Both the position numbers and the translations under genes were made by a program. A DNA stretch of 64,000 nt, taken from an uncultured Roseburia sp. Its GTDB lineage: Bacteria > Bacillota > Clostridia > Lachnospirales > Lachnospiraceae. Below, in pieces: positions 23,170 to 28,297 of this stretch. The notes under the pieces are model-generated. The model had not been told where the DNA came from and did not search any database. It was given only the letters and a program-made list of their open reading frames with translations. The number at the start of each line of letters is the position of its first letter. Position 1 is the stretch's first letter. The stretch covers positions 14,848 to 78,847 of the forward strand of contig CAMSQM010000006.1 of assembly GCA_947062675.1 (NCBI GenBank), in the 5' to 3' direction.

Positions 23170-24309
23170 TTATTTTGTGCGTTTTTTTTCCTGATACATC
23201 CGTTTATCAGCCAGCGCCACGGCGTCCCTTGTACTTTTCATGCTGTCAGCATTATATTTTACACAGCCGGCGCTGATGGTGATTTCCCATGGCTTTCCGC
23301 CGCCCCAGCGGATTCCGGCAACCGACTCCTGAAGACGTCTGATGGTATCCATGGCTTCTTCAGGCGTATTGCTTTTGAGAATTATGACAAATTCGTCTCC
23401 GCCGTATCTTGCGAGAAATGCCTGTTCTGCCCCGAACACGATTTTGATCCGATCGGAAACTTCCCGAAGCACTTCATCTCCGGTCACATGACCGTATGCA
23501 TCGTTGATGCTTTTGAATTTATTGATATCCATCAGGATAAAGTACCAGTTCTCCTTATCCTCCAGGCGTTCATCCATAATCTGCAGGTACTGGTCCAGGC
23601 GCCTCCGGTTGTTTAAGCCTGTCAGGCTGTCCCTTGTGACCTGCTCACGCTGGACATTGGTGTAGATCAGCAGCAGGGACGCCGCCGTAAAGGGCCAGAT
23701 AAGGTCTGTCCCGAAGAAAGCGAGCTGCAGAATACTGCCGAGGACCGGCAGCAGAATAAAGGCGGCAAGCATCTGGAACTCTTTTTTCTTTTCAGGAAGA
23801 TATTCCAGACGGATCTGACGGTGGGCCAGCGCGGAAGCGGCGGTCAGATAGCCGACTGGAATCAGCACCTGAAGCACAAAGTATGGCCCGCGCACGTAGT
23901 GGTTGTGAGAGTCCATGTAAAACAGCAGCCGGTGCCAGGGATTCGATGCGAGGACCGCAAGCAGCACAAGCAGTGGAACAGACCAGACAGCCGCTTTTCT
24001 GCCGGTCTGCCCGACTCCGTTGACAACCATATCATACACGTACAGATACCACAGAAATGCGGCAAAACATACGGAGCCGGAATACAGGGTATTTGTGAAC
24101 CACAGGAGAGCGGAGGCATATGGCTTTATACTGCCGTCCAGAACCCAGGTGCACATGTTGATCACGATAATGCCGGCAAGCAGCACGATAATAAAACGCA
24201 GCACGCGGCTCCGCCAGGTATAGGTGAAAATTTTTGGCGTATTGAGCCGCATAATAATAAGTACTATGATCGGTATAATATTGATCTGCACATATATCGC
24301 CGCACTCAC
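23170..24309 (-). CDS. Membrane diguanylate cyclase (about 7 TM + GGDEF)
   Basis: RDSLTGLNNRR, DINKFKSINDAYGHVTGD, ARYGGDEF; GTG 24309 overlaps the upstream stop (GTGA) with GGAGG RBS. Confidence 0.9.
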   Translation of the reverse strand: MSAAIYVQINIIPIIVLIIMRLNTPKIFTYTWRSRVLRFIIVLLAGIIVINMCTWVLDGSIKPYASALLWFTNTLYSGSVCFAAFLWYLYVYDMVVNGVGQTGRKAAVWSVPLLVLLAVLASNPWHRLLFYMDSHNHYVRGPYFVLQVLIPVGYLTAASALAHRQIRLEYLPEKKKEFQMLAAFILLPVLGSILQLAFFGTDLIWPFTAASLLLIYTNVQREQVTRDSLTGLNNRRRLDQYLQIMDERLEDKENWYFILMDINKFKSINDAYGHVTGDEVLREVSDRIKIVFGAEQAFLARYGGDEFVIILKSNTPEEAMDTIRRLQESVAGIRWGGGKPWEITISAGCVKYNADSMKSTRDAVALADKRMYQEKKRTK

Positions 24310-25517
24310 ACAGAATCCTCCTTTTTTGCGCATATCGCCGGTTCCGGCTGCCTGTGCAGCCGCGCCGCCCGTGTGCTTTCTTTTTTGTCTGTTTTCTGCC
24401 GGTACATCCGCTCGTCTGCTTTTGCGATCAGACCTGCGGTGGTCTGGTCTGCTATCTCGCTCCACATGGCATAGCCGATACTCAGGGAAAGGCTGTAAGG
24501 TTTGCCTGTTCTCTGCCGGAAGAGTTCAGCCTCACTGTGAATACGCTGCATCATGTGCCGGGCGTCTTCCGGCGTCTCCCATTCGCCAATTACCGAGAAC
24601 TCATCCCCGCCGTACCGGGCCAGGAAGACAGGCTCCCCTGAGGCTGCGCGCCGCAGAATCCCGGCAGTCGCCCAGAGAGCCTCGTCGCCGACAGAATGAC
24701 CGTGTCTGTCGTTGATCAGTTTGAAATCATCCACATCAATCATCAGGATTCCCCAGTCGGTCCTGTCCTGTTCCGTTTTTTTGCGCAGATAGCGGTCAAA
24801 CTCCCTGCGGTTGTTAAGACCGGTCAGTCCGTCCGTTGTGATCTGCTGGTTCTGCGTTTTAATGTAGAGAAACAGGATCCCGACGGACATACACGGAGCG
24901 GTAATGCACCAGTCGGCCCGGATGGTGTCCGCGAGGATGCCGGCCAGCGGAAACAGGGCGGACTGCATCAGAAACCGGTATTCCTGCCGCAATGCGCTGC
25001 GGGAGGCCCGTTTTAAGGCAGCGTATGCCAGAAACGAGCTGGCCAGAAAAACGATGCCGGAGAAAAGTTCCGGGATAAAAAAGAGACATTCTCTCCGGTA
25101 TATCCGGTCGTCCGTGATGGAAAAAATCAGGTGAGTCCATGGCGTCAGGGCGGTAAATGCCACGTATCCGGCAAATACATACTGCAGGATGCGGCGTGCT
25201 TTGTTTATTCTGTCCGGCGGCTCCTTTCCGTAGATGCGATAGCGCAGGTAGAGGAACCAGTGGCATGGAACCATGGCAGAAAAAACTGCGTTTAAAATAT
25301 GAACCAGCCAGAAGAGGAACACCGGCGTGCGGTCCTGCCATTCGTCCAGGAACCCCGCAGCCACGTCCAGGGCGATAAGTCCGCCGGTCATAAGGATCAG
25401 CTGCTGGAACAGTCGTGTCTCTGTTTTCCTTGTTCCCTTTTTCTGGTTGTTCAGATACAGGATCGCGAGCATGCATACTGGAAATAAATTAACGCTTAAA
25501 TGCGTCACGATATCCAT
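24306..25517 (-). CDS. Membrane diguanylate cyclase (about 7 TM + GGDEF), paralog of the neighbour
   Basis: TDGLTGLNNRR, DVDDFKLINDRHGHSVGD, ARYGGDEF. Confidence 0.92.
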   Translation of the reverse strand: MDIVTHLSVNLFPVCMLAILYLNNQKKGTRKTETRLFQQLILMTGGLIALDVAAGFLDEWQDRTPVFLFWLVHILNAVFSAMVPCHWFLYLRYRIYGKEPPDRINKARRILQYVFAGYVAFTALTPWTHLIFSITDDRIYRRECLFFIPELFSGIVFLASSFLAYAALKRASRSALRQEYRFLMQSALFPLAGILADTIRADWCITAPCMSVGILFLYIKTQNQQITTDGLTGLNNRREFDRYLRKKTEQDRTDWGILMIDVDDFKLINDRHGHSVGDEALWATAGILRRAASGEPVFLARYGGDEFSVIGEWETPEDARHMMQRIHSEAELFRQRTGKPYSLSLSIGYAMWSEIADQTTAGLIAKADERMYRQKTDKKESTRAARLHRQPEPAICAKKEDSV

Positions 25518-25530
25518 AATACTCCTCCGC

Positions 25531-27525
25531 CTACTGATATTTCCTGCGGAACTGTACCGGAGTCATTTCGTAGGCTTTCCGGAACAGGCGGTTAAAATGT
25601 TCAACATTTTCGTATCCCACATAGGCCGCGATCGCCTCCACGGTCTGGTTTGTCTCCTTGAGCATCTTGCGCGCACGTTTCATGCGCGCGGCCTTGACAG
25701 CATCCTGAAAAGTCATGCCCGACTTCTCGCGGATATAGCGTGAGAGATACGGTTTGGAGAGGCCGAAGTTCTCGGCGAGGAGGTCCAGTGTCACGTCCGC
25801 ATAATGGCTCTGGATATAGTTCATAATATCGACGATGCGCTCCTCACGTCCCTCTGTGATATTCTTATCTTTCGTGAGCTTGTTGGCCGCGGAGACAAGT
25901 GCCGCAACCGAGCTTGTGATGATATCCGCGTCAATGCCCACACCCCAGTAATCTGTTCCCTGGCAGGTGATCTGTACGAACGCGGCAGCCCTGGAGGAAG
26001 AGCCCCTGGAGATCGCATGTTCCTCATAGGCGGAGAGCTCATAGCTGACGCCGAAAAACATCTTGATCGCATTGCTGACGGCGTCAAGGCGGCCGTTACC
26101 TGCCGTCTCGACAGTCCTCTGTTCCCCGTTCTGCGCGATGGTAACCGTGGCCGTGATACCGTTCTTCTGCTCGAAGTGGCATTCCGTTATGGCGAAGATA
26201 TCCTTGCGGTTGATGTAATGTTCCTCAAAAATACGGTAAATGGCCTGCGGGGACAGCTCCTGGTGCATGTGGTCGGAAGTTCCCTTGACGAGATATCCGA
26301 CTTCCTCTTTCATCTGATCGGGCAGCGCAATGCCAAAGTTCTGTTTTAAAATGAAGGCCACGCCGCCTTTGCCCGACTGGCTGTTGATGCGGATGACGTC
26401 GGATTCGTATTCACGTCCCACATCCCGGGGGTCAATTGGCAGATAGGGCACATCCCAGCGCTCCCCGCTATTGCCCGCGTCCCGCCATGCCATGCCCTTG
26501 GAGATTGCGTCCTGGTGGGAACCGGAAAAAGCGGTGAATACCAGGTCTCCGGCGTACGGCGTGCGCTCATAGACGCGCATACCGGTAAACTGTTCATACT
26601 TTTCGCGGATCGGGCTGATGTGCGAGAAGTCCAGTCCCGGATCGACGCCGTGGCAGAACAGGTTCATCGCGAGAGTGACGATATCGACATTTCCGGTCCT
26701 CTCCCCGTTGCCGAACAGCGTTCCCTCGACCCGGTCGGCCCCGGCCAGGACGCCGAACTCCGCATCGCTTATGCCGCAGCCACGGTCATTGTGCGGGTGT
26801 ACGCTTAATATCACGTGTTCGCGATACTTTAAGTGCCTGTGAATGTATTCAATCTGGCAGGCGAAGACGTGCGGCATGGCGATCTGTACCGTTGTCGGGA
26901 TATTGATAATCGCCCTGTGCGTATCATCCGGCTTCCACACATCCAGCACCGCGTTGCAGACCTCCACGGCGTAATCCACCTCGGTTCCCGGAAAGCTCTC
27001 CGGGCTGTACTCGAAGGTGAAGCTGCCGTCCGTCTCATCCGCAAGTGTTTTTAACAGGGCGGCGCCATCCACGGCGAGCTGTTTCACCTCTTCGCGGCTC
27101 TTCTTAAACACCTGTTCCCTCTGCGCGACGGAAGTAGAATTATAGAGATGAATGACGGCGTGCGGCGCGCCCTTTACCGCCTCAAAGGTCTTGCGGATAA
27201 TGTGCTCCCTGGCCTGGGTGAGCACCTGCACCGTCACATCATCGGGGATCATATTCCGCTCGATCAGCGCGCGCATAAAATTGTACTCCGTCTCGGAGGC
27301 GGCGGGAAAACCGACTTCGATTTCCTTAAAACCGATATCCACAAGCATCCGGAAGAATTCAAGCTTTTCCTCAAGGCTCATCGGTTCGATCAGGGCCTGG
27401 TTGCCGTCTCTTAAGTCCACACTGCACCAGACGGGCGGCCTTTCGATGCTGTCTTTTTTTACCCAGTCATATGTCACCTCCGGCGGCATAAAGTAGGACT
27501 TTTTATATTTTTCTGCGATGTTCAT
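25531..27525 (-). CDS. leuA: 2-isopropylmalate synthase with C-terminal AraC-type HTH
   Basis: SVDLRDGNQAL, HPHNDRG, GNGERTGN, NSQSGKGG; last ~105 aa are an AraC double HTH (LSKPYLSRYIR..VGYENVEHFNRLFRKAYEMTPVQFR) in frame. Confidence 0.93.
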   Translation of the reverse strand: MNIAEKYKKSYFMPPEVTYDWVKKDSIERPPVWCSVDLRDGNQALIEPMSLEEKLEFFRMLVDIGFKEIEVGFPAASETEYNFMRALIERNMIPDDVTVQVLTQAREHIIRKTFEAVKGAPHAVIHLYNSTSVAQREQVFKKSREEVKQLAVDGAALLKTLADETDGSFTFEYSPESFPGTEVDYAVEVCNAVLDVWKPDDTHRAIINIPTTVQIAMPHVFACQIEYIHRHLKYREHVILSVHPHNDRGCGISDAEFGVLAGADRVEGTLFGNGERTGNVDIVTLAMNLFCHGVDPGLDFSHISPIREKYEQFTGMRVYERTPYAGDLVFTAFSGSHQDAISKGMAWRDAGNSGERWDVPYLPIDPRDVGREYESDVIRINSQSGKGGVAFILKQNFGIALPDQMKEEVGYLVKGTSDHMHQELSPQAIYRIFEEHYINRKDIFAITECHFEQKNGITATVTIAQNGEQRTVETAGNGRLDAVSNAIKMFFGVSYELSAYEEHAISRGSSSRAAAFVQITCQGTDYWGVGIDADIITSSVAALVSAANKLTKDKNITEGREERIVDIMNYIQSHYADVTLDLLAENFGLSKPYLSRYIREKSGMTFQDAVKAARMKRARKMLKETNQTVEAIAAYVGYENVEHFNRLFRKAYEMTPVQFRRKYQ

Positions 27526-27595
27526 AGTCGTTTCTTTGTCTCCCTCTGTCTGATCTCATTATTTCTGTACTGATATTTTTGATATATTTTGTTCT

Positions 27596-27624
27596 ATTCT
27601 ATCATGACTGATCTTTCTGTTCAA
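27596..27624 (-). promoter_or_regulatory. SigA promoter for leuA
   Basis: Minus strand TTGAAC-N17-TAGAAT with extended TG. Confidence 0.6.
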
Positions 27625-27649
27625 GGGGAAATTCATCAAACTTATTGAT

Positions 27650-28297
27650 TTATTTTTTGCTGTCTATTCCCTGCCTGGCGCAGAGTTCCCTGATGCAGCA
27701 GCGGTCGCAGTGAGGCTGTGTTCTGGCGGTGCAGATGTCCCTGCCGTGTTCCACCAGGCGGTGGCAGAAATCATTTCCCTCTTCCGGCGGAATGATTTTC
27801 CAGAGCGCCATCTCGACCTTTTTCGGCTCTTTTATACCATCCACAAGCCCCATGCGGTTGACCAGGCGGATGCAGTGCGTGTCCGTGACGATAGCGGGCT
27901 TACCGAAGACGTCCCCCATCACCAGGTTCGCGCTTTTGCGGCCGACGCCGGGGAGTTTTAAGAGTTCGTCGAAACTGTCGGGAACTTTTCCGCCGTACCG
28001 GTCGCGCAGAAGCTTCATGCAGGCGCTGATGTCCCGGGCCTTGCTGTGCCCGAGCCCGCAGGGTTTTACGATCTCCTCGATTTCACCGGGGTCCGCCGCC
28101 GCAAGCGCATTCACGTCCGGAAACTTTTTATAGAGCTCCGGGACGATTACGTTGACACGGGCGTCCGTGCACTGCGCGGCGAGACGGACACTGACCAGAA
28201 GCTTCCAGGCATCGTCATAGTCAAGCGTGCATCCGGCGTCGGGATATGCTTCTTTTAGTTTTTGTATGATTTTTTTTGCCAGTTCCCGTTTATCCAT
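27650..28297 (-). CDS. nth: Endonuclease III
   Basis: LAAQCTD, HhH LPGVGRKSAN, VTDTH, Fe-S motif C-x7-C-x2-C-x5-C. Confidence 0.93.
   Translation of the reverse strand: MDKRELAKKIIQKLKEAYPDAGCTLDYDDAWKLLVSVRLAAQCTDARVNVIVPELYKKFPDVNALAAADPGEIEEIVKPCGLGHSKARDISACMKLLRDRYGGKVPDSFDELLKLPGVGRKSANLVMGDVFGKPAIVTDTHCIRLVNRMGLVDGIKEPKKVEMALWKIIPPEEGNDFCHRLVEHGRDICTARTQPHCDRCCIRELCARQGIDSKK

Follow-up and report, generated by a model that had tools for sequence, protein, structure and literature searches.

Introduction

Several metabolic enzymes carry a DNA-binding domain (DBD) of their own and belong to the so-called trigger enzymes, with PutA, BirA, NadR and archaeal RbkR as described examples (PMC5397151). 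In characterised homologues of 2-isopropylmalate synthase (LeuA), the regulatory domain is known to bind leucine and to dimerise (PMC10464499). Here we describe a gene in which a LeuA runs on into an AraC-type double helix-turn-helix (HTH) domain; it was found in a 64,000-nucleotide stretch of DNA from an uncultured Roseburia sp. of the Lachnospiraceae (GenBank assembly GCA_947062675.1, contig CAMSQM010000006.1, positions 14,848 to 78,847). We will refer to this whole stretch as “the window”, and to the gene as leuA-HTH. A literature search found no published description of a LeuA-AraC fusion. A predicted operator accompanies the DBD upstream of the gene, and we assign a probability of roughly 0.65 to the reading that the protein is a trigger enzyme autoregulating its own gene through this operator.

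Should this reading be correct, an amino-acid biosynthetic enzyme would join the few trigger enzymes that possess a DBD themselves, and the feedback-inhibition site of an enzyme would have been reused as the sensor of a transcription factor. It would likewise illustrate from nature how a riboswitch-like RNA, the T-box, can be supplanted by a regulatory protein, since every intermediate state is found in living genera: the T-box only, both controls, or the protein only. Lachnospiraceae from the guts of humans and animals harbour the family in abundance, Roseburia being among the source names, and little is understood of how they control branched-chain amino-acid synthesis. Furthermore, a single defined 24-bp operator makes the idea directly testable, and could yield a compact leucine-responsive switch for engineering.

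The LeuA-HTH fusion protein

The leuA-HTH gene occupies positions 25531-27525 of the window on the minus strand, as do all the features of this locus given below, and codes for 664 amino acids followed by the stop codon. According to the list of open reading frames, the translation and the domain scans, it is one uninterrupted frame, with neither a stop codon nor a frameshift at the junction of its two parts. From the amino terminus, it comprises an HMGL-like (DRE-TIM) TIM barrel (residues 32-307; 26605-27432; Pfam PF00682, 2.5e-69, and the alignment to PDB 1SR9), the IPMS_D2 post-catalytic subdomain (residues 327-394; 26344-26547; PF22615, 5.5e-33), the LeuA_dimer allosteric/regulatory domain (residues 423-550; 25876-26259; PF08502, 1.3e-26), a variable junction (residues 551-566; 25828-25875) and an AraC-type DBD of seven helices with two HTH motifs (residues 567-664; 25534-25827), delimited by Pfam, a structural model and conservation. 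The profile NF002991 of NCBIfam (2-isopropylmalate synthase) is matched over residues 5-549 with 797.6 bits against a cut-off of 455, and the equivalog TIGR00970 with 660.8 bits, slightly under its cut-off of 697.4. Within the DBD, HTH_18 and HTH_AraC match residues 583-661, the former at 8.3e-23 over 79 of its 80 profile positions and the latter at 9e-11; its recognition helices are LSKPYLSRYIRE and NVEHFNRLFRK, and its sequence matches in the PDB are the YesN-type AraC DBDs 6SWI and 3LSG. A first annotation of the window made from its letters (the sequence-only reading) had proposed a complete LeuA in frame with an AraC double HTH, which the Pfam and NF002991 matches and the uninterrupted junction bear out. 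The protein has the defining sequence features of both long-form LeuA and the AraC family and, at the level of sequence, it unites on one polypeptide a putatively active enzyme and a DBD, the combination by which a trigger enzyme is recognised.

In an AlphaFold2 model of the monomer, with a predicted local distance difference test (pLDDT) of 74.9 and a predicted template modelling score (pTM) of 0.54, the regulatory domain has a pLDDT of 84-93, and its helix stops at residue 553. The only coil of the junction is the seven-residue segment 554-560, after which the DBD starts at residue 561, its seven helices spanning residues 561-663 with a pLDDT of 77-89. The layout of the regulatory domain fits the published description of the leucine-binding domain (PMC10464499). 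Regarding catalysis, the alignment to LeuA from Mycobacterium tuberculosis (PDB 1SR9) covers residues 26-520 with E = 3e-152; R39/D40, the glutamate of EYSPES, H243/H245, H337 and the tyrosine of VPYLPIDP are identical to R80/D81, E218, H285/H287, H379 and Y410 of the mycobacterial enzyme, the last two, H337 and the tyrosine, already belonging to the D2 part just after the barrel. In the same alignment, the regulatory domain keeps its signature blocks as well.

In the source genome (2.99 Mb in 87 contigs, 94.9% complete), leuA-HTH is the only LeuA-type gene. A second LeuA or a CimA was considered and rejected, as the one further HMGL-like gene is oxaloacetate decarboxylase alpha according to NCBIfam. 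The gene had been described as lying apart from leuBCD, and this is the case: leuB-ilvD-ilvB-serC is on contig C14 and leuCD on C3, with leuA-HTH and its window on C6. Among the 29 other fused genomes used for comparison, 25 contain a single LeuA-like match, leuC is kept in all 29 and leuB in 28. Since the rest of the pathway is present and no other LeuA-type gene is found, we infer from gene content that the fusion protein must be the isopropylmalate synthase of the cell, if the organism makes leucine.

Distribution and conservation of the fusion

The distribution of the fusion was surveyed with one genome per genus in 301 genera of the family. An intact match over the whole protein is found in 75 of them (its own genus included), with 63-81% identity and about 662-670 amino acids; in three further genera the enzyme and the HTH lie in different frames, and in the other genera with a close match LeuA stops at about residue 550. 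Besides, more than 120 protein clusters with 77-99% identity share all five domains at ~664 amino acids, their named sources being Roseburia sp., Lachnospiraceae or Clostridiales. The suspicion that such fusions occur in other Lachnospiraceae was therefore well founded, and the domain-architecture survey suggested at the time shows that close relatives do not have two separate genes instead. Outside the family, the arrangement of regulatory domain plus HTH was met only twice when 399 genomes, sampled across the class from about 70 families, were examined.

Among 30 fused genera, mean pairwise identity is 82% in the barrel, 67% in the regulatory domain, 33% in the 16 residues of the junction and 72% in the HTH, and both HTH recognition helices hardly vary. 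Congeners have collinear proteins of 664 amino acids; in four of them the nonsynonymous divergence (dN) of the HTH is 0.06-0.12, below that of the regulatory domain, only dN being compared, and no dN/dS ratios, because synonymous sites (dS) are saturated even at this distance. A search with the HTH only against 1.8 billion representative proteins gave 18 matches below 1e-30, all of them LeuA fusions or pieces thereof, past which identity drops to the 30-45% typical of generic AraC proteins. The small HTH proteins (120-145 amino acids) returned by the representative search sit on contigs of 500-700 nt and are uninformative. As judged from these comparisons, the fusion is real and ancient, and its DBD is under strong purifying selection. 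With a frame that is intact and conserved in about a quarter of the genera of the family, the HTH looks like a functional AraC DBD, and it constitutes a subfamily of its own, essentially seen only joined to LeuA.

A predicted operator upstream of leuA-HTH

From the upstream regions of 30 fused orthologues, a 24-nt element was derived as the predicted operator, with the consensus AAAATCAA-N6-TGATTAAA(A/T)TT and about 36 bits. Its invariant blocks, ATCA and TGAT, are 11 bp apart, that is, one helical turn, which is the spacing expected if one AraC domain contacts them with its two HTH motifs. The element is asymmetric through its flanks, and its orientation is always that of the gene, the reverse strand scoring 13-25 bits lower. 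In the Roseburia strain, the operator (box 1, TAAATCAATAAGTTTGATGAATTT) is predicted at 27629-27652, its core, ATCAA-N6-TGAT, occupying 27649-27635; it reaches from the stop codon of nth, the preceding gene, to a few nucleotides upstream of the -35 element, and is invariant among congeners. With 29.8 bits, it is the best match of the position weight matrix (PWM) in the whole genome, the next ones (26.0 and 23.5 bits) being beside unrelated genes, and it is the sole exact match of the pattern in the window.

A sigma-70 promoter is predicted at 27596-27624 by a promoter scanner and by the alignment of congeners, with the -35 hexamer TTGAAC (27624-27619), a 17-nt spacer and a TG-extended -10 element TGATAGAAT (27604-27596) whose hexamer TAGAAT ends at 27596. 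The predicted transcription start is near 27589, and box 1 would then be at about -63 to -40. A leader of about 64 nt follows from this predicted start, in agreement with the short leader (~65 nt) expected earlier, and a ribosome-binding site, GAGGGAG, can be read at 27540-27546. Upstream of the gene, three congeners (84-88% identical in protein) show no variation in precisely these blocks: the box, CCTTG (-35) and TGATAG[A/T]ATAGA (-10).

Congeners also have a good second box, ATCAACTTTCTTGAA, 74-76 nt from box 1, and in these and about 15 other genera a second box of the same orientation is found 73-76 nt downstream of the first, just past the predicted start. At this position, the alignment of congeners reveals in our strain a degenerate site, ATCAAAAATATCAGT (27569-27583; about +6 to +20), which retains the ATCAA half only. 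The TGATATTTT-like repeats pointed out at 27571-27590 by the sequence-only reading as a first binding target do exist; they overlap this degenerate box 2 and are not the conserved element, the strongly conserved site being that at 27629-27652.

In a large clade (L016, L018, L021-L024, L026 and L027), box 1 coincides in part with a conserved hairpin and the T-run behind it (GGAAAGTGA-N9-TCACTTTCC TTTTTT); this structure resembles the terminator of the upstream gene of ~420 amino acids, and operator and terminator have sequence in common there.

Operator and T-box in relation to the DBD

Loci encoding the HTH were compared with close long-form LeuA genes without it, the absence being confirmed by tblastn; a box was counted at 18 bits or above in the 500-600 nt upstream, and a T-box at the Rfam gathering score of RF00230. 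The box is present in 55 of the 73 loci with the DBD and in none of the 37 without it, where the best score is 5.7. At loci outside the training set of the PWM the figures are 30/44 and 0/20 (Fisher p = 7e-8, shared ancestry ignored). The T-box leader follows the opposite trend, being found at 16 of the 73 loci with the DBD vs 30 of the 37 without it (Fisher p = 3e-9, shared ancestry likewise ignored). In the maximum-likelihood tree of the LeuA moiety, the HTH-less L039/L040 and L048 are nested in fused clades, and the box has been lost there too. The fusion found in another family (L138) has the box, and the second one out of the family (L139, genome G598) has two diverged boxes, ATCAT-N6-TGAT, 59 nt apart. 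The flanking genes vary among genera, so the box belongs to the leuA-HTH gene and to no neighbour. As regards the protein of L139, its second recognition helix is altered (PNAEHFIRLFKK vs ENVEHFNRLFKK in the Roseburia protein), and these changes of helix and box may represent a co-variation of protein and site.

The two controls are also arranged in an orderly manner. Where both are present, the box precedes the T-box leader and is 400-525 nt away from the start codon; in fused genes without a T-box, this distance upstream is 84-219 nt. Fused genes with a T-box are scattered over the LeuA tree, a pattern suggesting that an ancestor had both controls and that its descendants repeatedly lost one of the two. 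Neither a T-box nor any other Rfam family reaches the gathering score across the window (1-64000), and an RNA leader of either kind was thus rejected for this strain, in which control would be protein-based (putatively) and without a T-box. The absence of a T-box stated by the sequence-only reading accordingly holds for the strain and not for the family, given the 16 fused loci that have one. As for other RNAs, the Clostridiales-1 sRNA (Rfam) is next to leuA in three genera (L011, L045, L180), beside the T-box in two of them, and a THF riboswitch (Rfam) is located upstream of leuA-HTH in L036, on the opposite strand.

Targets of the putative regulator

The box was not found near leu or ilv genes in a PWM scan of the whole source genome, nor, at 15 bits or above, in the 1.5 kb around leuC or leuB of the 29 other fused genomes, a distance that covers promoters up to 1.5 kb upstream and not those further away in long operons. 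Scanning the 30 fused genomes with the exact pattern returned roughly a single consensus site in each genome, that of leuA-HTH. Six extra consensus-like sites were inspected, and they are in coding regions or beside unrelated genes, with no recurrent second target. The simplest reading would be a regulator with one target, its own gene. In this sense, the earlier idea of the enzyme as the sensor of a one-component transcription factor keeps its core, a working LeuA with an AraC DBD (conserved fusion, sole LeuA, near-invariant helices, DBD-linked operator), and loses the leu regulon, the own promoter being the likely target.

A LysR-type gene (C3:46416-47318) is divergent from leuCD. The lysR-leuC intergenic region (C3:47319-47479, outside the window) lacks the box and contains a distinct palindrome, ATGATA-N9-TATCAT, likely a LysR box. 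Thus, leuCD may have its own regulator, separate from leuA-HTH.

Neighbouring genes and frameshifted loci

Downstream of leuA-HTH, and on the same minus strand, two genes for membrane GGDEF proteins (diguanylate cyclases) span 23170-25517. The first of them starts 13 nt past the leuA-HTH stop codon with its own ribosome-binding site, and no terminator is seen between these genes; with the shared strand and the short gap, this makes it probable that the GGDEF gene is co-transcribed with leuA-HTH, in which case both would depend on the promoter with the predicted operator. In two of three congeners, too, leuA-HTH is followed by the GGDEF pair, with gaps of 70-140 nt.

The enzyme and the HTH are out of frame with each other in 3 of the 50 loci of the first sets and in some metagenome contigs. 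The three loci (L038, L041, L047) were considered as a natural split into leuA and a stand-alone HTH gene, and rejected as such: the HTH frame overlaps the end of leuA by 26-55 nt, and the frame changes at runs of A9, A8 or T5. With overlapping frames and shifts at homopolymer runs, they represent fusions with a frameshift and do not speak for an HTH protein in its own right, their frameshifts being either assembly errors or recent mutations. The shifts in these three genera (L041 and L047 among them) fall exactly at the variable leuA/HTH junction, and slippage at such runs could, in principle, give both LeuA alone and LeuA-HTH. Barrel-less paralogues consisting of sensor and HTH were similarly rejected, as the two most recurrent candidates (P0167 on 83 contigs, P0233 on 35) are C-terminal fragments of full-length genes with a frameshift. 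Metagenome contigs from many samples contain such frameshifted leuA-HTH genes (L122-L129; the P0167 fragment with its 83 contigs), and the position of the shift in P0233 differs from contig to contig; these recurrent genes represent either pseudogenes in a widespread species or a systematic assembly error.

Proposed mechanism and alternative explanations

In the mechanism that we propose, the DBD would recognise a roughly 20-24 bp asymmetric operator abutting the -35 element of its own promoter, and the protein would thereby control its own synthesis, with essentially one target. Leucine occupancy of the adjacent regulatory domain would set DNA binding, with transcription going up when leucine is scarce. 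Box 1, in a class-II-like activator position, would serve to activate at low leucine; the poor -35 with extended -10 found in many genera fits a dependence on an activator. Box 2 would either repress or close a loop between the two DBDs of a LeuA dimer. An effector-dependent output is suggested by the domain order, by the short linker and by the scarcity of the T-box where the DBD is present, and leucine is a plausible signal, at somewhat less than even odds. A more complete picture can be drawn, tentatively: the allosteric leucine site of LeuA would double as the sensor of an AraC-type transcription factor, the dimer would switch its DBDs between an activating site adjacent to the -35 and a bracketing pair ~74 bp apart, as in the “light switch” of AraC, and this protein sensor would have progressively replaced the T-box of leuA in a large radiation of Lachnospiraceae of the gut. 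We hold this picture as a whole to be possible, and rather less probable than simple autoregulation.

Several observations weigh against autoregulation through box 1. In the core ATCA...TGAT, a partial palindrome, the LysR pattern ATC-N9-GAT can be recognised, so that a dimeric factor is possible as far as the sequence of the site goes. With a linker of seven residues, one dimer would have difficulty binding two direct repeats simultaneously, and the structural model is of moderate confidence at the pLDDT of 74.9 and pTM of 0.54 given above, for a monomer only. About a quarter of the fused loci have no site of at least 18 bits within 600 nt, some of them showing recognisable variants and two showing nothing, and shared ancestry is left out of account in the Fisher tests, with no more independent support than about three co-losses plus one or two transfers out of the family. 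Finally, the promoter hexamers of this strain are good, a site at about -60 to -39 is poor for a simple repressor, and box 2 is degenerate; with good hexamers and box 1 as the only intact site, control of either sign would be conceivable here.

The DBD could also couple promoter activity to the amount of enzyme with no metabolite involved, leucine acting on catalysis only. The operator evidence fits this equally, and boxes flanking the promoter in many genera would suit a dose-dependent self-control; nonetheless, a DBD ~7 residues away from a leucine-binding domain is the usual sensor-DBD layout of AraC proteins, and the leucine-responsive T-box is rarer where the DBD is present (16/73 vs 30/37), which suggests the same job, so that we regard ligand-free control as unlikely. 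A clearly smaller chance is given to a different binder of the box, such as a LysR-type dimer encoded divergently from leuCD, with the fused DBD binding other sites. The fit of the core to the LysR pattern and the LysR-type gene adjoining leuCD speak for it, whereas the asymmetry and single orientation of the box, its near uniqueness in each genome, as for a dedicated local regulator, and the way in which it tracks the DBD, including the co-losses and the transfer outside the family, do not; the LysR regulator itself was rejected as the binder, since the box is missing from the lysR-leuC intergenic region, precisely where LysR binding would be expected.

It is just as improbable that the DBD serves a wider regulon (leu/ilv genes or other functions) in which the own-promoter site is merely the most conserved. 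Pattern matches over the 30 whole genomes do exceed those of a reversed-pattern control (about 75 vs about 16), but neither the scans around leuC and leuB (up to 1.5 kb) and the leu/ilv genes of the source genome nor the six inspected extra sites, found in coding regions or beside unrelated genes, support additional targets. As to the fusion being an artefact of stop-codon loss or misassembly, or its DBD a decaying remnant, the out-of-frame parts in 3 of 50 loci and in some metagenome contigs might be invoked; against this, the frame is intact in 75 genera at a nearly constant length and congeners are collinear, the DBD is better conserved than the regulatory domain, and the frameshifts occur at homopolymer runs and at variable positions, leaving this explanation a practically negligible probability.

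Comparison with known systems

Ada, a methyltransferase with an AraC-type HTH, provides a precedent for a protein that joins such an HTH to an enzyme-like domain and controls its own gene. Unlike the LeuA fusion, it is a suicide DNA-repair protein activated by self-methylation, and no metabolic enzyme with an allosteric end-product site. A parallel in kind is seen with PutA, BirA, NadR and RbkR, which likewise combine a metabolic enzyme and a DBD in one polypeptide and whose regulons, as would be the case here, include their own promoter; in RbkR, as in LeuA-HTH, the DBD has been lost in some lineages. On the other hand, the enzyme of the LeuA fusion performs the first committed step of an amino-acid biosynthesis, its DBD is a C-terminal AraC double HTH, whereas theirs are N-terminal ribbon-helix-helix or winged HTH domains, and its apparent regulon, as predicted, is a single gene.

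With regard to its enzymatic moiety, the fusion has catalytic residues identical to those of LeuA from M. tuberculosis (PDB 1SR9; 3FIG), which ends after the regulatory domain, whereas the fusion runs on into the DBD. In this last part it resembles AraC, RhaS, MelR and XylS, where a sensor/dimerisation module, whose place LeuA would take here, is followed by a C-terminal seven-helix double-HTH domain. The predicted operator, asymmetric, made up of two blocks one helical turn apart and abutting the -35, would be that of the AraC/XylS family as well, and two sites of the same orientation together with a dimeric protein recall the looping of AraC. The differences from this family are that the putative sensor is a complete enzyme of 550 amino acids and not a small ligand-binding domain, that the linker is very short, and that the second site is downstream of the transcription start. 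Lastly, the T-box (RF00230) acts at the same gene, and both systems presumably answer to the supply of leucine; however, in the T-box an RNA attenuator senses uncharged tRNA, whereas the LeuA-DBD system would be protein-based and act at the promoter. Some genera have both, and in this Roseburia strain the putative protein system is present alone.

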